Shown: piece after piece, positions 7,019-18,923 of the stretch | Layout: each line of letters opens with the position of its first letter | Numbering within the stretch: position 1 is the first letter of the stretch | Virus record (IMG/VR): IMGVR_UViG_3300038312_000303 | Coordinates: 1 to 33,472 of that record | Length of the DNA: 33,472 nucleotides | From: a virus | Lineage: Duplodnaviria; Caudoviricetes | Strand: one strand, 5' to 3' | Made by a program: the position numbers and the translations under genes | Notes under the pieces: model-generated | Told to the model about the DNA's origin: nothing | Databases searched by the model: none | What the model saw: only the letters and a program-made list of their open reading frames with translations

Positions 7019-7942
7019 TCATAAACCCCAGTTCATTACAGGGGATGCAATCCGGTGTGCATTGGCGATATCTGCCTGGGCGAGGGCGAGGTACCGCCTA
7101 ACCATGTCCAGGGTCGAATGGCCGAGGATTTGCTGGAGCGTGTAAATGTCACCGCCGTTGCGGAGGTAATTGATCGCAAAGGTGTGGCGGAAACGGTGGG
7201 GATGGACGTTCAGGACGCCGGCGCGGTCGCCTATGATATTTAATGAGCGCTGCACTGTTCCCCTTTGCTGCTTTAGGCCATCAATAGTTGAGAAAGCAGG
7301 TCCTTGGATGGATGTCGAAGGGTGTTCTGCAAAATGAGCCCATAATGCTTGCGCTGTACGGGGTGAGATCGGAATCTGCCGGCCTTTCCGACCTTTCCCA
7401 AACACTGTGATATAGCGATTTCGGAGATCTACATCTTTAACTTTTAGATCACAGAATTCTTGCACTCTAATTCCTGTATCTAGTAAAAGTAAGATAGTTG
7501 TCTTCATTCTCGAACCGTTTGAGGTCTTCTTCTTATAGGTCCGTTTTCCTGGGGTAATGCATATTCTTGAATGATCACAGGAGCCTAACAAGAGCCTTAT
7601 ATCCTGCTCAGTAAAGGGGACCACCGCGACTGTGTCTGGTTTCGGAGGTCTCACTTTTTGTGGGACTTGGGTTTCGGCAAACCCACGCTCACTAGCCCAA
7701 GTCCAGAGGGCAGACAGGCCGACATGGTAATTTAGGATCGTCTTCTTTTTAAGCTGTTTCCAGGATCCAAGAAAGCCTTCGATAATAGCCGGGGTAATAT
7801 CGTTTATCTGTACATCAACTCCAAGGTAGCTCACGAATTTATTAAACGTATTTGTGTAGTCTCTAATCGTGGCCGGTGAAAGTCTAGCATCTGCATAGAT
7901 TAGGTAACCTTCAATTGCTTTTGAAATAGGCATATTTTCCAT
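7019..7942 (-). CDS. int: Tyrosine integrase
   Basis: DTGIR, GKG, HRFRH and LGH...RY catalytic motifs; SAM-like N-terminal domain; GGAGG RBS before ATG 7942; next to tRNA-derived attP. Confidence 0.92.
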   Translation of the reverse strand: MENMPISKAIEGYLIYADARLSPATIRDYTNTFNKFVSYLGVDVQINDITPAIIEGFLGSWKQLKKKTILNYHVGLSALWTWASERGFAETQVPQKVRPPKPDTVAVVPFTEQDIRLLLGSCDHSRICITPGKRTYKKKTSNGSRMKTTILLLLDTGIRVQEFCDLKVKDVDLRNRYITVFGKGRKGRQIPISPRTAQALWAHFAEHPSTSIQGPAFSTIDGLKQQRGTVQRSLNIIGDRAGVLNVHPHRFRHTFAINYLRNGGDIYTLQQILGHSTLDMVRRYLALAQADIANAHRIASPVMNWGL

Positions 7943-7984
7943 CCTTGCTGCCTCCAAAACAGCGTTACTTATTGGGATAATGCT

Positions 7985-8038
7985 GTCTGGTCTTGGAATA
8001 TAAAAAAAGGCCAGACTTTTTTTTATCTGGTCCTTTTT
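7985..8038. terminator. Overlapping bidirectional intrinsic terminator(s) upstream of int
   Basis: Plus strand: GTCTGGTCTT/AAGGCCAGAC then T8; minus strand: AAAAAGGACCAGA...TCTGGCC then T7. Confidence 0.6.
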
Positions 8039-8049
8039 CTGTACTTTAT

Positions 8050-8242
8050 CCGTGATGCCTTTAGCAGGCTAACCGTGATGCTTGTATTTCGATTTCCCTC
8101 GTTGAGAGGGGCTTTGTGGGCGCTAGAGGGCTCGAACCTCCGAACCTCACGGATGTGAACCAAAACACAGAATTTGGCTACTTGCAACCACACGGTTCCT
8201 ATTATTGACTAACCTTGAACACAATAGCTTTAGGGAACCGTG
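8050..8242. repeat. Candidate integrase arm-type sites flanking the att core
   Basis: CCGTGATGC at 8050 and 8073; AACCGTG inverted at 8191 and direct at 8236; CTAACCTTGA at 8209 vs CTAACCGTGA at 8069. Confidence 0.5.
8116..8161 (-). other. attP: attP core: 3' half of tRNA-Val(CAC)
   Basis: Minus strand GG-TTCACAT-CCGTG-AGGTTC-GGAGG-TTCGAGC-CCTCT-AGCGCCC-A-C = anticodon loop (CAC), T-arm and 3' acceptor strand; 5' half absent; followed by a CCCTC/GAGGG hairpin. Confidence 0.88.
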
Positions 8243-9016: not shown

Positions 9017-10336
9017 TCAGCTGACATCCTCTAAGATGCTGTTGAATTCTTCTTCAGTAATGATTTGGATCTTCCCGCCGGCTTCCACAAGTTTCCTGGC
9101 AGTACGTTCCTTTTTTGAAAGCTGATCAGCCCCCAGATGTGTGAAGGATGGGACACCCACCACGAGATAATCAACCTGATCATTGACAGTATCTCTTACG
9201 TTCCCGCCCAGGTTTGCTGTCAGTGCTGCAATCTCTCGCCGGGAAGTAGCCAAAGCGCCGGTGAAGACAAAGTTCAAACCATTTAATGGACCACCCTCAA
9301 CCCCATCCTGTTTTACTCGAGAAAAATAGGAAGTGGATCTAAACCTCTTCTTCAATGAGTCTTCCCAATCTGAGATCGAGTGGGAATGATTAGCGAGGAT
9401 ATACAAAACCACCTGTGCTGCCATGAAGGCATCTGCAACGGCATCGTGAGCATCTTTATATTCAATTTCATAATGCAGACAGAGGTTCTGAAGGCTGTAG
9501 CCAGACTGGCGAAAACGTTCATCGGCACGGCGGGCCATCTTGGCGCTATCCATGAACCTCAACTGAACTGGAGGCAGGCTATACCTCTGTTGAGATCTCT
9601 CAACTGCCAGTCGGTCAAATGAGGTGTGAATCACAATCAACTCGCCATCCACCAGCTCCAGCAATGATGGCAGAAGTTCCGGCCAGGCGGGAGCGCCTGA
9701 GACTGTAACTTCATCAATGCCGTGGAGCCATGTGTTTGAGAAGTAAGTTTCGGGATCTACATAGGAGCCCCAAGTATGGGTGACCTTATTGTCTTTAACG
9801 AATGCCAATCCTACCTGGCAAATTGAGGCCATGTCTTCATTGGCGGTCTCAACATCCAGGGCGATGAAATCATATTTACTGGGTTTGGAATTTGTTGAAC
9901 TCCTCTCATTCTTTGAAAGATACTTTTCAACAAATTCTTTTGATACATCCATTGCATCCCCGATGCGGTTAGTCCTGAGCAATACCTTGATTGTGTCCTG
10001 GCTAATGGGCATGCCATGAGGGAGATATTTATCCTTTGCATGCTGAGATTCGTCTTGATAACGCTTTTTTTCAATTTGGAAATTGTGGACTACTGCATCC
10101 TCATAGATTCTTATAAAATCAAGAGCCGTCGTTTTATCGCCTAGTGCTTTATAGACTTTAGACAATTCATCGTAATAGTATGGGGGAGTTCGAGGATCAT
10201 CGTAATTCATTTCCAGCCATCGCACGCACTCCAGTAGCAGATCCCTGGCTTCAGCGTATTTTTTCTCGCGTTTTAGTGACTTTATGACCTCAACCTGTTC
10301 CCAAGGTTTGAACTGGTCATCCTCGCCTAAACCCAC
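9017..10336 (-). CDS. TPR-like helical domain + DEDDh 3'-5' exonuclease (DnaQ-like) + BRCT
   Basis: ALDVETAN, HTSFD and HDAVADA exonuclease motifs; LNGLNFVFTG...LGG...VDYLVVG BRCT; GTG start overlaps the cI stop. Confidence 0.85.
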   Translation of the reverse strand: MGLGEDDQFKPWEQVEVIKSLKREKKYAEARDLLLECVRWLEMNYDDPRTPPYYYDELSKVYKALGDKTTALDFIRIYEDAVVHNFQIEKKRYQDESQHAKDKYLPHGMPISQDTIKVLLRTNRIGDAMDVSKEFVEKYLSKNERSSTNSKPSKYDFIALDVETANEDMASICQVGLAFVKDNKVTHTWGSYVDPETYFSNTWLHGIDEVTVSGAPAWPELLPSLLELVDGELIVIHTSFDRLAVERSQQRYSLPPVQLRFMDSAKMARRADERFRQSGYSLQNLCLHYEIEYKDAHDAVADAFMAAQVVLYILANHSHSISDWEDSLKKRFRSTSYFSRVKQDGVEGGPLNGLNFVFTGALATSRREIAALTANLGGNVRDTVNDQVDYLVVGVPSFTHLGADQLSKKERTARKLVEAGGKIQIITEEEFNSILEDVS

Positions 10337-10935
10337 TAAAATCTCCTGCGGATCTCGATGACCTTGCCTACGATGGTGACTGGGAGTGATTTGACCTGGT
10401 CGGTGCTGAAGAAGACAGGTTCGAAAGCTTCATTCCTGGGGATGAGCATGAGTCCGTTGATCTGTTTCTTGACCCTCTTAACTGTCACATCCTCCCCATT
10501 GACACGGACCACGGCAACATCGCCGGAATCGATGAAGTCTTGCTTTACGACGATAGCAATGTCTCCGTTATTGATCTCTGGCTCCATGCTCTTACCTTTG
10601 ACGCGCAGGGCAAAAAACTCACCATCCTTGACGAAGCGCGGGTAGATATCGATGTATTCCTCAACATTCTCGATCGCTTCAATAGGAACGCCGGCTGGAA
10701 CTTCCCCCAGGACAGGGATCAAATAGGATTGGAGCTGATTGGTTTTCTGTGTTTTGCCAAGTAAGTAATCGATTGATACTTCAAAAATCGATGCCAGCTG
10801 AAGTAGTTTTTCGTTATCAGGCTGGATGTTGCCAATCTCATATTTTGTATAAGTCGACCGGTCAACGCCTAAAGCCTCAGCAACCTGCTGCTGAGTGAAG
10901 CCTTTCATCTCCCTCGCGATCTTGAAATTGTTCAT
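10336..10935 (-). CDS. cI: CI-like repressor (XRE HTH + S24 autopeptidase)
   Basis: TQQQVAEALGVDRSTYTKYE HTH; VPAG cleavage site; GKSMEP Ser and VTVKR Lys; GAGG RBS. Confidence 0.92.
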   Translation of the reverse strand: MNNFKIAREMKGFTQQQVAEALGVDRSTYTKYEIGNIQPDNEKLLQLASIFEVSIDYLLGKTQKTNQLQSYLIPVLGEVPAGVPIEAIENVEEYIDIYPRFVKDGEFFALRVKGKSMEPEINNGDIAIVVKQDFIDSGDVAVVRVNGEDVTVKRVKKQINGLMLIPRNEAFEPVFFSTDQVKSLPVTIVGKVIEIRRRF

Positions 10936-10957
10936 GTAATCACCTCTCTGAATAATA

Positions 10958-11076
10958 ATGTGCCTTTTTGACACATGCAAGAATCACACCAGAATGTGAC
11001 TAATCTCCACATTTCACTGGGTTTACCCTTGACAATGTGCGTAATAGGCACTAAGATATGTGCTAATTACGCACAA
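10958..11076. promoter_or_regulatory. Four CI/Cro operators, consensus ATGTG-N9-CAC(AT)
   Basis: 10958 ATGTGcctttttgaCACAT; 10994 ATGTGactaatctcCACAT; 11035 ATGTGcgtaataggCACTA; 11058 ATGTGctaattacgCACAA. Confidence 0.8.
11029..11057 (+). promoter_or_regulatory. Early lytic promoter (PR-like)
   Basis: TTGACA-17-TAAGAT, overlapped by operator 3 and abutted by operator 4. Confidence 0.8.
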
Positions 11077-11084
11077 GGAGCCTA

Positions 11085-11291
11085 ATGGACTGGTTAAAAG
11101 AGAAAAGACTGGAAGCAAACCTCACCCAGGAAGAAGTGGCAGTCAAGGTAGGGGTCAACAGAGCCACGGTCACGAAGATCGAGAATGGATCACGCACGCC
11201 TTCCATTTGGCTGGCAAAAAGATTGGGAGAGACACTCGGTTTCGACTGGACGCGCTTCTACGAAGAAGAGCCAGAGCCAGAGGCTGGGTAA
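11085..11291 (+). CDS. cro: Cro-like HTH regulator
   Basis: LTQEEVAVKVGVNRATVTKIENG XRE HTH; divergent from cI; AAGGAG RBS. Confidence 0.9.
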   Translation: MDWLKEKRLEANLTQEEVAVKVGVNRATVTKIENGSRTPSIWLAKRLGETLGFDWTRFYEEEPEPEAG

Positions 11292-12247
11292 TGTTTGCTG
11301 ACTCCCCCACTGAACGCGCGAATGCCTGGGCGGATGCCAGGGAGCTGTGGCTGAGCCGGCTGGGATCGCCCAATACGGCGACTTCCTATAACACCGCGCT
11401 GGGATCCCTGCTGGAATTCACCAGGAAAGCGCCCTGGGAGATCAGCCGGCGGGACATCAACGCATGGATGGCGCACCTGCAGAAAGGCAAGAGCGCGCCG
11501 GCCACGATCGCTCTGCGGTTGACGGCGGTCCGATCCTTCTACCGCTTCCTAATCACCGATTACGTGCTTATGGACCTGAATGCCGAGGAATACCGCCTGC
11601 GCGAGGATAACCCGGCGGATGGCTGCAGGACCCCCAAAGTGGAGCGCTATGGCCGCGCGATCTGCCTGGACCGGGAGCAGGCTGCGGCGCTGCTGCAGGC
11701 GATCGAGACAGATAACCTGGTGGGCAAGCGCAACAAGGCGCTGTTTGCCGGCTACATGCTGCTGGGCTTGCGGAACTCGGAGCTGAAAAACCTGAGATAC
11801 GAAGACATCGACGTGCGCGTGGAAGGCATTTATATGCGCTACACGGGCAAGGGAGGCCGGCAGCAGCTGAAAGAGATCTTCCCGCCGGTTTACCAGGCGA
11901 TCATGGCCTTCGCGGATGCGGAAAACCGCTATGAAGGCTACGTTTTCCACTCCTATGACGCGGCTGGTAAGCCGATCAACCGGCCAATCCATGACCAGAC
12001 GGTGCGGGATGCGCTGAAATACTACGCCAGGCGGGCGGGGTTACGAACCCAAGGCCTGCGGGTGCACTCTTTGAGGCACACCGCGGCGATCCTGCGAAAG
12101 GAGGCCGGTGACACAGACGAAGCGATCCAAAAGTTCTTGAAACACGGCAATGTGAACACCACCAGGATCTACCTGCAGCACCTGAAACCGGATCCGGATA
12201 AGACCTGGATGCGGGTGGCAGAGATGCTGGAAATGGTGAAATTTTGA
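11291..12247 (+). CDS. Second tyrosine recombinase (XerC/D-like)
   Basis: TAATG coupling to cro; GLRNSEL, GKG, HSLRH and LKH...TRIY catalytic motifs; SAM-like N-terminal domain. Confidence 0.9.
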   Translation: MFADSPTERANAWADARELWLSRLGSPNTATSYNTALGSLLEFTRKAPWEISRRDINAWMAHLQKGKSAPATIALRLTAVRSFYRFLITDYVLMDLNAEEYRLREDNPADGCRTPKVERYGRAICLDREQAAALLQAIETDNLVGKRNKALFAGYMLLGLRNSELKNLRYEDIDVRVEGIYMRYTGKGGRQQLKEIFPPVYQAIMAFADAENRYEGYVFHSYDAAGKPINRPIHDQTVRDALKYYARRAGLRTQGLRVHSLRHTAAILRKEAGDTDEAIQKFLKHGNVNTTRIYLQHLKPDPDKTWMRVAEMLEMVKF

Positions 12248-12249
12248 GG

Positions 12250-12277
12250 GGTTGGGATAAGGGAGATTATCCCAAGT
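12250..12277. other. dif/lox-like recombination site (11-6-11)
   Basis: GGTTGGGATAA-GGGAGA-TTATCCCAAGT: 9-bp perfect inverted arms with an ATAA-N6-TTAT core, 2 nt after the recombinase stop. Confidence 0.75.
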
Positions 12278-13798: not shown

Positions 13799-14542
13799 AT
13801 GATGAAGAAACCACTGCTCCCACCGAGTTATGTCAACATCCCTGCAGCAAGGGTGTATGACACCACCATCCCTGCGGCTGTATTTCAGACCTATGTACAG
13901 CTGCGCGGGATGGCCTGGGGGCAGGATGGGGTCGAAGAGATCCCGATCAAACAGATCATGGAGGTGACGGGCAAATCCAGATCCACGATCTATGGCCACC
14001 TGGCGGTGTTGAGAGATTTGGGCTGGCTTCTGTTCAGCTCAACTCGGCACTGCGGCTTAACCTGTCGGTTTCAAGACCTGCCGGCTGCGGGCCAAGATCA
14101 TTTGTCCAAAAGTCTGGACTGCCTTAATGAAGAAGTTAAAGAATCTTTTAATCCTGTCGATCTTCCTGCTTTTAATGATCTTGAGGGGGAGAATCAGGCG
14201 GCGAGCGTCCAGATATCTGGACTGGCGTCCAGAAGTCTGGACAGAAGCAATGGGTATCACGATGTGATCGATGCGGAGCTGGGCGGGATCCTGGAAGGTT
14301 TGGGGGTGTACCGCACGGTGTTTCCGGCGCTGGCGGAGGCGATCCGGTCCCAAGGGTGGGACCGCGGCCGCCTGGTGCAGATGGCGCGGGACCTACGCGC
14401 GCAGAAGGGCGCCCAAGACGCGGGGAAGCTGTTTGTGTGGCGCGTGAGGAACGGGATTAAGCCCAGGACGGAGGAGGATGCGCGGGCTGAGCAGGCGCAG
14501 GCCTTCAGGGAGCTGTTTTTAGCGAGCAAGGAGGAAGGGTGA
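13799..14542 (+). CDS. Putative replication initiator (N-terminal wHTH)
   Basis: IKQIMEVTGKSRSTIYGHLAVLRDLGWL HTH; internal iteron-like repeats and AT-rich tract, as in lambda O-type initiators. Confidence 0.65.
   Translation: MMKKPLLPPSYVNIPAARVYDTTIPAAVFQTYVQLRGMAWGQDGVEEIPIKQIMEVTGKSRSTIYGHLAVLRDLGWLLFSSTRHCGLTCRFQDLPAAGQDHLSKSLDCLNEEVKESFNPVDLPAFNDLEGENQAASVQISGLASRSLDRSNGYHDVIDAELGGILEGLGVYRTVFPALAEAIRSQGWDRGRLVQMARDLRAQKGAQDAGKLFVWRVRNGIKPRTEEDARAEQAQAFRELFLASKEEG
14104..14242. repeat. Putative replication origin: three 16-bp palindromic iterons around an AT-rich tract
   Basis: GTCCAAAAGTCTGGAC 14104; GTCCAGATATCTGGAC 14207; GTCCAGAAGTCTGGAC 14227. Confidence 0.7.
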
Positions 14543-14702: not shown

Positions 14703-15752
14703 ATGAAGAAAATGAACGTCGAAGCAATTGATTTGTTTTGTGGTATAGGGGGATTTACCTATGGTCTTCAACAAGCAGGGGTTAGAGTGCTTGCAGGACT
14801 AGATGTGGATGAATCCTGTAAGTATGCTTTTGAGAAAAATAATTCTTGTGCTTTTATATGTGCAGACATTTCTAGTTTCGATTTTTTACAATTGTCTTCT
14901 GTGTATAGTGAAGATTCGATAAAAGTTCTTGTTGGATGTGCACCTTGTCAGCCTTTTTCATCTCATACATTCAAAGTAAAAACGAAAAACAATGACCAAC
15001 GATGGGATTTAATTAACCACTTCGTTCGAGCGATCAAAGTCCTGGAACCACACATTATCTCAATGGAGAATGTGAGGGGAATTACCAAGACAGATGTATT
15101 TAATCAGTTCCTTTCTGATGTGAAAAGATTGGGTTACGATGTAGACTATCAAATTGTATATACACCCGATTATGGTATTCCTCAGAGTAGAAGTAGGCTC
15201 GTCCTAATAGGCTCAAGAATTGGACTAATTAAGGTACCAGAAGTTACACACAATAAAGAACAATACACCTCTGTTTCAGAGGCTATTGGTAAGCTTGCTC
15301 CAATAAAAGCAGGGGAGACTTCAGAAAACGATCCGATCCATAGGGCTAAGAACTTGTCGGAGATAAATCGATTGAGAATAAAACAATCAACACCTGGGGG
15401 AACATGGAAAGACTGGGACCCTTACTTACTTCCAGGTTGCTATACAAAAGAAAGCGGTCAAACTTACACTTCCGTTTATGGTCGAATGAGTTGGGACAAC
15501 GTTGCCCCAACTATAACGACTCAGTTTTTCAATTATGGATCTGGTCGATTTGGTCATCCTGATCAAGATAGAGGTTTATCCTTACGTGAAGGGGCTTTGT
15601 TACAAACATTTCCGAGAGATTACGATTTTGGAAAAGATATATCCCTCACAAAGATTGGAAGACACATAGGCAACGCTGTTCCACCGCGGCTGGGGACTGT
15701 TATTGGAGAAGCTATGTTTAATCATGTGGTAAAGCGATATGGAAAAGAATGA
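14703..15752 (+). CDS. Orphan C5-cytosine DNA methyltransferase, M.HgiDII-like
   Basis: DLFCGIGG, GCAPCQ, ENV, Q.R.R, SVYGRM.WD..APTITTQ..GRFGHP.QDR and IGNAVP motifs; AT-rich relative to its flanks. Confidence 0.92.
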   Translation: MKKMNVEAIDLFCGIGGFTYGLQQAGVRVLAGLDVDESCKYAFEKNNSCAFICADISSFDFLQLSSVYSEDSIKVLVGCAPCQPFSSHTFKVKTKNNDQRWDLINHFVRAIKVLEPHIISMENVRGITKTDVFNQFLSDVKRLGYDVDYQIVYTPDYGIPQSRSRLVLIGSRIGLIKVPEVTHNKEQYTSVSEAIGKLAPIKAGETSENDPIHRAKNLSEINRLRIKQSTPGGTWKDWDPYLLPGCYTKESGQTYTSVYGRMSWDNVAPTITTQFFNYGSGRFGHPDQDRGLSLREGALLQTFPRDYDFGKDISLTKIGRHIGNAVPPRLGTVIGEAMFNHVVKRYGKE

Positions 15753-16818: not shown

Positions 16819-17282
16819 TGGGGATCCTGAATTATTCGACTAAGATCGATCCTCACATCACTGCTGGAGAGCTGTCAGGAAAGCTAGCAGTACTCGGTGC
16901 AAATCAGGTTTCTATTGAGTACGATGAGCGCCGGCTGCCAGCTGGAATTAGCTTTGTGGTGATGATTAGCGGGTCTCACATCATGTTTAAGCTGCCGTGC
17001 AAATGGCAGGGCGTGTTGAGTGCCATGCGCAAGGATAGGTCCATCTCTAAGAGCTACCAAACGGAAGAGCAAGCGCGGCGGGTGGCCTGGAGGATCGTGA
17101 AGGATTGGGTGGAAGCACAGATGGCGATCATCCAGGCAGAATCGGCAGATCTGGCGGAGGTCTTCCTGCCTTACGCGATTAATCCGGGGACAGTGGAGAC
17201 GCTGTATCAGTCATTCACCTCAGACCCACAGAACCTGTTGATAGCCGGCAGCGAGATCGTTGATGGTGAGTACCATGAGTAG
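16818..17282 (+). CDS. Conserved hypothetical phage protein
   Basis: NY.T...RVAWRIVKDW..AQ.A...E.FLPY pattern; TAATG coupling. Confidence 0.7.
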   Translation: MGILNYSTKIDPHITAGELSGKLAVLGANQVSIEYDERRLPAGISFVVMISGSHIMFKLPCKWQGVLSAMRKDRSISKSYQTEEQARRVAWRIVKDWVEAQMAIIQAESADLAEVFLPYAINPGTVETLYQSFTSDPQNLLIAGSEIVDGEYHE

Positions 17283-17808
17283 CTCCGAAAAGCGGCCATT
17301 CGCAGAGGTGCTGCCGATCGCTGAAGGGATTGTGGACGAGCTGAGGCCGTATTGTGAGCGGATCGAAATAGCCGGCAGCCTCAGGCGGAAAAAGGAAATG
17401 ATCGGGGATATTGAGATCGTGATGATCCCCCAGGAAACGGAAGGCTTGTTTGGAGGAAGCAAGCGCGATGGGGCACTGCTGCTGGCCTTGACAGCCTCTT
17501 ACAGGGGATGGAGACGCGTGAAAGGCGGGGAGTGGTATCAGCAGTACCTAGTTGAAGGGATGACGGTGGATTTCTTTATCACCACACCCGAAAAGTGGGG
17601 CTGCATTTTCCTGATCAGGACCGGCAGCGCAGATTTCTCCAGGAAGGTTATGACGGCGAGATCCCAGGGCGGTCTGTGCCCGGATCATCTGAAGTTCTGG
17701 TCTGGCCGGCTGTGGGATGGGGATCGCGCCCTGGAGACACCTGAGGAAAAGGATGTGTTCCAGGCATTGGGGCTGGCGTTTATTGCGCCTGAGGCGCGTG
17801 CGGTTTAA
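17275..17808 (+). CDS. Minimal family X DNA polymerase / Pol beta-like nucleotidyltransferase (palm + thumb only, 177 aa)
   Basis: IAGSLRR...GDIEIV, VDFF, WG..L.RTGS..F and EE.DVF..LGL.FI.PE.R motifs. Confidence 0.85.
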   Translation: MSSSEKRPFAEVLPIAEGIVDELRPYCERIEIAGSLRRKKEMIGDIEIVMIPQETEGLFGGSKRDGALLLALTASYRGWRRVKGGEWYQQYLVEGMTVDFFITTPEKWGCIFLIRTGSADFSRKVMTARSQGGLCPDHLKFWSGRLWDGDRALETPEEKDVFQALGLAFIAPEARAV

Positions 17809-17897: not shown

Positions 17898-18509
17898 ATG
17901 CAAATTATTACACTATCTGGACCCTATACTTGGCCAACCTCTGTGAAGCTAGCACCAATAAGTTATAGATGTGGCTACTGTGGTGAGAAAATGAAATCAC
18001 AGGAAGGATACACGTCTAGAGAAGCGTCAACTTGGTCTGCTTCGTTTCCTAGTGGTGGAACTATCTATATTTGTTCCACTTGCGGTTCACCGACTATGTT
18101 CGATCATATTGGCGATCAATTTCCAGCACCTTGGTATGATTCCAATAGAGTTCAAAGTCTTCCAGAAATTGTTGAAGAGGTGTTCCGGGAAGCAAATATA
18201 TGTCAGCAAAATGGATGCTACACAGCGACAGTGATGCTATATCGAAAATTACTGATGCATCTTGCAGTGGAAAAGGGAGATAAACCTGGGAAAGGCTTTG
18301 TTCAATACGTAGATTATCTCGAGACCAATCATTATTTTCCCCCTGGAGGTGAAGAATGGGGGAAAAAGATTAAGGACCTCGGCAATGACGCAAATCACGA
18401 GATAGTCATTATGGGGAGCGAGGAAGCAGAACTGATCTCAACCACAATGGAAATGTTGCTTAAATTCATTTATGAGTATCCAGAAAAGTTTAGAGATACT
18501 ACAAGCTGA
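17898..18509 (+). CDS. Zn-ribbon + DUF4145 (HEPN-like) protein
   Basis: CGYC/CSTC; LPE.V...EA..C...TA.VML.RKLLMH.AV..G...F..YVDYL...IKDLGNDANHE; AT-rich with its own promoter. Confidence 0.8.
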   Translation: MQIITLSGPYTWPTSVKLAPISYRCGYCGEKMKSQEGYTSREASTWSASFPSGGTIYICSTCGSPTMFDHIGDQFPAPWYDSNRVQSLPEIVEEVFREANICQQNGCYTATVMLYRKLLMHLAVEKGDKPGKGFVQYVDYLETNHYFPPGGEEWGKKIKDLGNDANHEIVIMGSEEAELISTTMEMLLKFIYEYPEKFRDTTS

Positions 18510-18873: not shown

Positions 18874-18923
18874 TATTTCCTCCTTGGGATAAAGGGTGAG
18901 GTGATCGAGGAAGGGGATGCGTC

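Follow-up and report, generated by a model that had tools for sequence, protein, structure and literature searches.

The 33,472-nt window analysed here, a whole phage contig with an end overlap of 98 nt, encodes two tyrosine recombinases. One of them, Int1, adjoins an attP made of part of a tRNA-Val gene. The other, YR2, lies between cro and the replication genes and is followed by a dif-like palindrome; degenerate copies of one arm of this palindrome stand in the leader of int1. We propose that YR2 recombines sister phage genomes at its palindrome and, in addition, controls Int1 by binding to the integrase leader. Judged from sequence comparison, this reading has a probability of about one in two.

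HK97-like head genes, an HNH gene 5′ of the terminase gene, tail genes and a CI/Cro switch are all present in the window, and the features that matter here are collected in Table 1. Sigma70-like promoters were matched twice in the window with 1.1 expected. YR2 is presumably repressed by CI, to judge by its gene position. Iteron-like repeats at 14104-14255, inside the replication-initiator-like gene, are about 1.8 kb from the palindrome. Neither an excisionase nor RecT/Erf/Sak or another single-strand annealing protein was detected in this phage genome; RecT-like genes occurred at 3 of 16 loci without YR2 and at 0 of 15 loci with it, which is not significant (p=0.23). Because the nearest homologues of YR2 are located in Anaerolineaceae genome bins and near-identical phage DNA is present in anaerobic-digester runs, the host is most likely an Anaerolineaceae bacterium.

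Table 1. Features of the phage genome, in order of position in the window
Feature	Position	Strand	Remarks
Int1, 312-aa two-domain tyrosine integrase adjoining the tRNA-Val attP	7019..7957	-	likely start ATG 7939
Half-site 2, predicted YR2 binding site, TTATCCCAATAA	7969..7980	-	9 inner bases identical to the palindrome arms
Half-site 1, predicted, ATATTCCAAGAC	7990..8001	-	21 bp upstream of half-site 2; 8/12 to right arm, by eye
Terminator-like hairpin with T-run, between attP and direct repeats	8002..8038	-	read by eye
Two CACGG half-sites (8077-8073, 8054-8050), likely Int1 accessory sites	8050..8077	-	resemble the anticodon-stem core
attP core, 3′ half of tRNA-Val(CAC)	8116..8161	-	matches full tRNA-Val of related prophages
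CI-like repressor (HTH_3 + Peptidase_S24)	10336..10980	-	domain match
Sigma70-like promoter match TTGACA-17-TAAGAT 5′ of cro, candidate early lytic promoter	11029..11057	+	consensus match only
Cro-like HTH gene	11085..11291	+	stop overlaps YR2 start
YR2, 318-aa two-domain tyrosine recombinase (SAM-like core-binding + catalytic domain)	11291..12247	+	domains Phage_int_SAM_1, Phage_integrase
11-6-11 core site, predicted YR2 crossover site	12250..12277	.	left arm 12250-12260, spacer 12261-12266, right arm 12267-12277
Replication-initiator-like HTH gene	13799..14542	+	domain search; homologue L016 matches phrog_270

The first-pass annotation had placed a second tyrosine recombinase with a full catalytic set after cro, and this is what the domain and residue analysis found: YR2 has both the core-binding and the catalytic domain, and R161, K187, H259, R262, H285 and Y294 supply the R-K-H-R-H/W-Y set of tyrosine recombinases. 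Five of these (R161, K187, H259, R262 and Y294) are invariant in all 36 aligned proteins of the family; at position 285, the H of the window gives way to Q in many relatives. No arm-binding domain was detected in YR2. The gene had also been described as coupled to cro. In the window the cro stop and the YR2 start do overlap (TAATG), but the pairing varies among relatives, with 0-3 genes between the two. Near-identical strains exchange the segment 10702-11238, covering the N-terminus of cI, the operator region and most of cro, yet retain YR2.

Calling YR2 Xer-like does not set it apart, as the XerA model gives Int1 the higher score (150.6 vs 115.9 bits) and both proteins lie below all Xer cut-offs. 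The scores of YR2 on the XerC and XerD models were 101 and 108 bits (cut-offs 335 and 330), on XerS 36 (cut-off 267) and on XerA 116 (cut-off 220). XerH gave no model match and was reached only by profile, at E=1e-5. The nearest solved structures by sequence are XerD and XerA, fold searches returned generic integrases only, and identity to Cre in the fold alignments was 16-17%. A phylogeny had been suggested as a check. In the quick tree that was built (SH-aLRT only, with long-branch warnings) YR2 forms a clade of its own that excludes Int1, E. coli XerC/D and the host Xer. That YR2 is a captured Anaerolineaceae Xer was considered and rejected: it shares 22-29% identity with the dif-linked Xer of the host, and the two fall into separate clades in the same tree, subject to its long-branch warnings.

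The palindrome begins 2 nt past the YR2 TGA and reads GGTTGGGATAA-GGGAGA-TTATCCCAAGT. It is a perfect 9-bp inverted repeat, with 9 of 11 positions paired across the full arm, around an asymmetric spacer; we take its layout to resemble that of E. coli dif. No other exact ATAA-N6-TTAT occurs in the window. In one hundred first-order Markov resamplings, perfect 9-bp/6-bp inverted repeats averaged 0.15 per genome and none had ATAA, compared with 2 and 1 in the window. The 11-6-11 site described earlier is therefore real, and the statement that it is the only full one agrees with both the exact-pattern scan and a scan led by the leader repeats; genomes of this clade have one each. Since the window has one site and the relatives with several carry all-different spacers, the earlier argument against an invertible segment stands, and a DNA invertase or shufflon, with two inverted sites of the same spacer, was rejected on the same grounds.

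A single-protein search of viral contigs returned nothing, and the relatives of YR2 were found by an alignment-based search. The family comprises 269 clusters at 50% identity (E up to 1e-30). The best 36 homologues are 47-82% identical to YR2, after which identity falls; among cultured phages the nearest relative reaches only 31%. In viral and genome loci alike, Int1, cI, cro, YR2 and the site repeatedly come in this order, commonly followed by a LexA-domain gene, then by a small conserved gene and a replication-initiator-like gene; many phages that have an Int1-type integrase carry a more distant YR2-type gene at this position.

Sites were scored as linked when they lay within -80/+900 nt of the YR2 stop, and a locus was counted if its downstream sequence ran to 300 nt or longer. 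At 45% identity and above, every locus had one (24 of 24, the window included; L107 and L109 are near-duplicates); at 30-45% the count was 10 of 25, and under 30% it was 1 of 12, so that 15 and 11 homologues, respectively, had no site near the stop by this strict rule. For background, 100 of 1160 random windows contained a site, with the true sites not excluded. A looser search led by the leader repeats recovered dispersed sites in most of the strict-rule failures tested, with none in L370 or L391. Where a gene is inserted after YR2 the site is retained, shifted to 214-580 nt away, and in L275 and L345 the YR2 stop codon itself forms part of an arm. The exact pattern was met at 20 viral loci, of which 11 are YR2 records and 8 others have no YR2-family gene in their 3-kb flanks.

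The arms change together. Among 18 related sites, preselected as palindromes, changes on both arms filled 14 cells against 4.3 after shuffling, and 0 of 500 shuffles reached as high. An identical double arm change is found in two separate branches (L014 and L105), and distant clades have their own symmetric outer arms, which score below every host arm (-14.0 to -1.2 for L274-L277 vs a host minimum of 9.9). Covarying sites after the stops of homologues had been proposed as a check, and they were found. The one-enzyme module with its own site that the first-pass annotation had envisaged is thus borne out by the covariation, by the single full site per genome in this clade and by the unsuitability of the palindrome as a terminator.

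The spacers took 13 forms among the 18 sites, none of them self-complementary, with T as the first base in 15 of 18 and A as the last in 17 of 18. When the search led by the leader repeats allowed 4-10 bp, 33 of 35 own-genome matches had a spacer of 6 or 7 bp. Strand exchange requires spacer homology in the system described in part of PMC2847244, so a spacer that is free to vary suits recombination between copies of a single genome rather than with an unchanging partner. Distant relatives have up to five or more dispersed sites, each with a distinct spacer, and several of these sites lie at gene junctions. In a search for module swaps at the site, identities upstream and downstream were seen to correlate (rho 0.80); identity falls from 0.90 to 0.52 in same-spacer pairs such as L101/L104, and different-spacer pairs show a drop as well.

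The phage had been credited with an integrase and a tRNA attP, and both were confirmed. ARAGORN found no whole tRNA in the window, and no arm-binding domain was found in Int1 by domain search. The core used by Int1 is the CACGG/CCGTG anticodon stem; copies of CACGG flank this core and usually overlap the Int1 start, and a third half-site in the window is at 8242-8238. Prophages in G003 and G152, both fully traced, have tRNA-Val repeats at their ends and an intact YR2 and site inside. Loose ends at 8161, continuing into a host tRNA, were seen in three of four DNA runs. Contigs bridge the palindrome, and no joint or loose end at it appeared among the matches listed for the 4 DNA runs.

The leader of int1 contains a feature that the first-pass annotation overlooked and that is likely to tie YR2 to Int1. 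Two head-to-tail copies of the YR2-site arm, 19-23 bp apart, lie between the terminator-like hairpin and the Int1 ribosome-binding site across relatives. In the window the copy is degenerate (below 11 on the clade matrix; a half-site at 18881-18892 scores higher, 15.7), and with half-site 2 as query the palindrome was the sole inverted site matched in the 33-kb genome. Agreement of leader repeats with the arms of the same phage over positions 5-12 was 154 vs 107 when permuted (n=16; 0 of 20000 permutations, p<5e-5), and with the main clade collapsed 120 vs 87 (n=13; 0 of 20000), although these phages are related and independence is overstated in both tests. The repeats mismatch their own palindrome in 3 of 16 cases (L280, L345 and L365). 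Site matches led by the leader numbered 0.84 per 10 kb in the own genome vs 0.34 in loci of other phages; this enrichment is just 2.5-fold because all loci share the core motif. Of 36 YR2 phages, 22 had repeat pairs scoring at least 12; of 11 near-complete records in which YR2 is absent, 1 did (Fisher p=0.004, by hand count of phages that are not independent), and that one record is incomplete where YR2 would lie. Six of the 36 YR2 phages had no repeat pair. Since the core of Int1 is CACGG/CCGTG, repeats of the TTAT type need another binder. Compared with the arm of the host site, the leader repeats fit the phage arm better in G003 (7 vs 4 of 8) and in the G002-type phage (8 vs 6); those of G152 fit neither.

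A mismatch search of five host genomes found a related site once per genome in four of them, and in the fifth with a refined pattern. That pattern matched 66 of 151 Anaerolineaceae genomes, almost always in single copy, with 0 control matches. At 11 of 16 host-site loci a conserved tyrosine recombinase was inside the fetched stretch; in two genomes it is 71 and 405 kb distant. GC skew was used to place the terminus because dnaA does not lie opposite the host site. Sampled as 15-kb tiles every 155-175 kb in 2 genomes, the skew switches from plus to minus at the host site in both, at tile resolution. The host site is very likely the dif of Anaerolineaceae, probably served by a single active Xer as in the XerS/difSL and XerH/difH systems covered in part of PMC5357621. 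It is thus single-copy and terminal, whereas the phage site lies in the early operon of a prophage. The supplement of a 2011 dif survey (PMC3025954, in the part used here) has Dehalococcoides as its sole entry for this phylum; the likely dif of Anaerolineaceae and its likely Xer, such as the enzyme at L175:7877-8842, come as a by-product of the present work. The idea that hosts short of Topo IV need help with unlinking was dropped, as 4 of 5 genomes have two GyrA/ParC-type genes.

Phage and host sites share GATAA-N6-TTATC and an outer AA-N-CA pattern, and other readings of the palindrome start from this likeness. It might be a second attP, with which YR2 or the host Xer would integrate the phage at the host dif in the manner of IMEX; the first-pass annotation had offered such a second route. 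A matching host site does exist in the 66 genomes, as the suggested search of candidate hosts showed, but its spacer never equals that of the phage: 0 of 13 phage spacers matched any of 7 host spacers in either orientation, the nearest being that of L100, with 4 of 6 bases in common with its own host's spacer. Moreover, both traced prophages are in tRNA-Val, phage genes run on beyond the site in the mapped core-clade loci, and joints at the site are missing from the listed matches of the four runs. The second route is therefore largely refuted and highly improbable, and with it membership of the IMEX, for which spacer homology to the host dif and a prophage at dif are expected. YR2 could also use its own site and bind the host dif as well, blocking chromosome dimer resolution and cell division in lytic growth. 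The common right arm of the main phage clade differs from the common left arm of the host at 1 of 12 positions, and the host site is single and at the skew terminus. That one difference, however, lies at position 6, where every one of 40 host arms has a purine while both arms of the main clade have C; the predicted recognition helices differ (DQTVRD vs TTTGRE) and distant clades lack the likeness, so we regard this effect as improbable. Less easily set aside, if still quite unlikely, is that the palindrome and leader repeats mimic a host dif arm and are bound by the single Xer of the host, alone or partnered with YR2, as at cer/psi or pdif. In the main clade, many arms have scores in the host-dif range (11.4-14.2), the upstream site of L265 and the site of L278 look host-like, and L333, L384 and L388 bear leader repeats, and L389 five inverted sites, with YR2 found in none of the four (records 100, 38, 71 and 78% complete, in a first look that may miss distant genes). 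These records and the degenerate leader copy of the window keep the reading alive. Against it are position 6, the window arms, which score 4.2 and 6.0 on the host-arm matrix and so below the host minimum, the symmetric divergence of distant clades from the host pattern, the linkage of the site to the YR2 stop across 28-100% identity, and the lack of a site in L306, L308 and L322, which have the same replication gene without YR2.

The remaining readings leave YR2 or its site with little or no crossover. The chief task of YR2 may be to regulate Int1 by binding DNA or to set its directionality, with the palindrome as an operator or a roadblock before the replication genes and strand exchange rare or absent. 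The leader repeats persist in seven YR2 phages without a palindrome near the stop (L357, L366, L370, L372, L391, L379 and L381), and five distant relatives have a further inverted site 360-430 bp upstream of Int1, beyond the att core where this was located. The arm-less Int1, the missing excisionase and the sites of multi-site relatives at gene junctions would also suit a regulator. Yet the five catalytic residues are invariant, the 6- or 7-bp spacers have the geometry of a cleavable core site and the end bases of the spacer are conserved, and we judge a mainly regulatory YR2 unlikely, though one of the main rivals. The palindrome could instead work as RNA, as a terminator or processing signal, or as an operator of the downstream gene. 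It folds as a 9-bp hairpin (z -2.0), and a gene with a LexA DNA-binding domain comes after it in 14 loci. However, it has no U-tract and no terminator was predicted, so that an intrinsic terminator was rejected and the objection that the palindrome is a mere RNA terminator, raised in advance, fails. Primary sequence and 6-bp spacing are conserved, single arms recur as direct repeats that cannot pair, and the site is kept in the window and L100, which lack the LexA-domain gene. Contigs from RNA libraries include parts of YR2 and cross the site (X15 record 7 spans it and may be DNA); strand and level are not readable from contigs. We consider a hairpin or operator role very improbable.

On the reading that we favor, with crossover at the palindrome and control of Int1 from the leader, YR2 would recognise a 12-bp TTATCCCAA-type arm. 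CI would silence YR2 in the lysogen, and induction or infection would switch it on together with cro and the replication genes. Two YR2 protomers would then occupy the inverted arms and strands would swap across the 6-bp spacer. As identical spacers are needed, partners would be limited to copies of one genome or to a co-infecting phage whose spacer matches, a rule that would explain both the tolerance of any asymmetric spacer and the coexistence of sites with different spacers in distant relatives. The reaction would interconvert monomer and multimer circles, as Cre does at bare loxP. A bare core site recombines without topological selectivity (PMC2847244, in part), from which we reason that the outcome would depend on copy number. 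We lean slightly towards the building of multimers as a packaging substrate, given that YR2 is a lytic gene, that its site lies close to the putative origin and that RecT/Erf/Sak went undetected; resolution or unlinking is nearly as likely. Recombination can provide concatemers for packaging (PMC12315714, in part). For plain resolution one site is enough, so the multiple barcoded sites of relatives speak more for a pro-crossover or regulatory role. The leader arms would serve for binding only, because head-to-tail arms cannot make a core site. YR2 placed there, between the terminator and the Int1 ribosome-binding site and amid the CACGG sites, would shut off int1 or bias excision in lytic growth.

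Taken together, these steps would make a two-recombinase switch, in which an arm-less Int1 is governed by a lytic-only, catalytically active YR2; YR2 on phased repeats of the att arm would replace an excisionase, crossover at spacer-barcoded dif-like sites would build packaging multimers in place of Red/RecT, and the arm would shadow the host dif. This full combination we advance tentatively, as rather doubtful in its entirety. If the leader repeats are YR2 sites, they would represent a new mode of control for an integrase without an arm-binding domain. The 269 clusters of the family also offer candidate one-enzyme pairs of a recombinase and a site with a 6-bp spacer. Sites adjoining recombinase genes are common enough for routine mining (PMC10250229, in part). 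No paper on the YR2 family, on the dif of Anaerolineae or on a second recombinase binding an integrase leader was found in the open-access literature searched.

The nearest precedent is gp50 of the Tyrovirus phages of Bacillus, Thrax and Tsamsa, which is unrelated in sequence. Like YR2 it gives a temperate phage a further tyrosine recombinase, encoded in a lytic module, and an 11-6-11 inverted repeat comes directly 3′ of its stop. Its function is left unexplained in the part of PMC9703825 used here, where it is placed in the structural module, unlike YR2, and where no link to an integrase leader is described. Tsamsa gp227, taken as gp50 by its position, matches YR2 over 46 aa only and its site arms differ, so YR2 is not an orthologue by sequence, nor does it lie in a tail module. 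To such known but unexplained extra recombinases YR2 adds a case with predicted targets, in which enzyme and site covary through a natural series of pairs. XerS/difSL, XerH/difH and XerA/dif share with YR2 a single recombinase gene beside a near-symmetric site with a 6-bp spacer, 11-6-11 as in the XerA sites (PMC5357621, in part). YR2 differs from them in being phage-borne and off the chromosome terminus, in scoring under the Xer cut-offs, in its variable spacer and in the direct repeats 4.3 kb off.

P1 is a plasmid prophage, unlike the present phage, which integrates at tRNA-Val by another enzyme. Cre and loxP otherwise offer a similar picture of a phage recombinase with an adjoining palindromic site, an asymmetric spacer and self-self recombination (PMC10250229, in part), but Cre sites are 13-8-13 and, given the low identity, YR2 is not of the Cre type. 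The IMEX (CTX, TLC, GGI) are mobile elements with a dif-like site resembling that of the host (PMC5357621, in part), and the phage departs from them in its mismatched spacer and its integration at tRNA-Val.

Cox/Xis-type directionality factors and Apl of phage 186 are small non-catalytic proteins, of which Apl binds helically phased direct repeats; YR2, unlike these, is a full recombinase. As an early lytic protein on att direct repeats that doubles as a regulator, Apl would nevertheless resemble the proposed YR2 (see also PMC7498355). TnpI and the IRS of Tn4430 are alike to YR2, in sequence arrangement, in combining an inverted core pair with a direct-repeat pair of one motif, and the direct repeats of TnpI are binding-only. 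The four TnpI motifs, however, are within 116 bp, with the direct repeats abutting the core, and impose resolution selectivity in a Tn3-family transposon (PMC2847244, in part), whereas the phage repeats are in the leader and att arm of another recombinase, 4.3 kb from the core. The YR2 module thus resembles XerS/difSL or Cre/loxP at its core and TnpI in its use of repeats, yet belongs to none of these systems.

A pattern search identified the dif-type site TTGYGATAA-TRRTAC-TTATCRAAA in one stretch of an Anaerolineaceae genome (L175) and in 65 further genomes of this family. The site is positioned at the GC-skew terminus, and a single conserved Xer-like gene is frequently present downstream of it. 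This site is likely to be the chromosomal dif of Anaerolineaceae; it is absent from the supplement of the 2011 dif survey (PMC3025954). A chromosomal Xer-like paralogue was conserved in five out of five Anaerolineaceae genomes. Inspection by eye of four of its sequences (L200, L216, L218 and L219) found neither the first Arg, nor the HxxR His, nor the catalytic Tyr, making the paralogue a candidate for a dead partner or a regulator. The dnaA gene was located at 2143 kb in genome G095 and at 1510 kb in G111, distant from both GC-skew switches of each genome.

Coordinates of features in the window and in compared loci
Feature	Position	Strand	Remarks
DEDDh exonuclease-BRCT fusion	window 9017-10336	-	immunity operon; cI on one side, lipoprotein-like gene on other
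C5 cytosine methylase and DUF4145 gene	window 14703-15752 and 17898-18509		low-GC inserts, GC 0.39-0.41
Short gene with DNA polymerase beta thumb domain	window 17260-17808	+
Lone strong half-site TTATCCCAAGGA	window 18881-18892	-	score 15.7; upstream of late genes
dif-type site	L175:7271-7294
Xer-like gene downstream of dif-type site	L175:7877-8842
Chromosomal Xer-like paralogue	L200:1456-2352	-	also L216, L218, L219
FtsK/SpoIIIE-like gene	L401:1309-2688	-
Repeated palindrome GAATGTTTGCGCGCAAACATT	L279:6961, 7710, 17959-17983; L280:5690		G152 prophage

Seven distant relatives (L343, L353, L366, L368, L372, L378 and L389) carry three to six inverted sites of the ATAA-N6/7-TTAT type per fetched stretch. 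The spacer differs at every site, several sites are at gene junctions, and one is often found 360-430 bp upstream of the tRNA-Val integrase, Int1. In five other loci (L337, L341, L355, L362 and L392) the early-operon slot of the second recombinase, YR2, is occupied by another tyrosine recombinase subfamily; the Int1 leader of L337 and L341 contains an inverted repeat instead of direct repeats. In L401, a homologue of YR2 and the site associated with it are followed downstream by the FtsK/SpoIIIE-like gene.

In the window, positive GC skew was observed in 31 out of 33 1-kb windows (positions 1-33000), and the polymerase beta thumb gene is kept in 14 loci. The cI-operator-cro block (10702-11238) was swapped for 541 different bases in three digester runs, with the flanking sequence nearly identical; this replacement is an immunity-module exchange. 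The palindrome repeated in the G152 prophage is operator-like.
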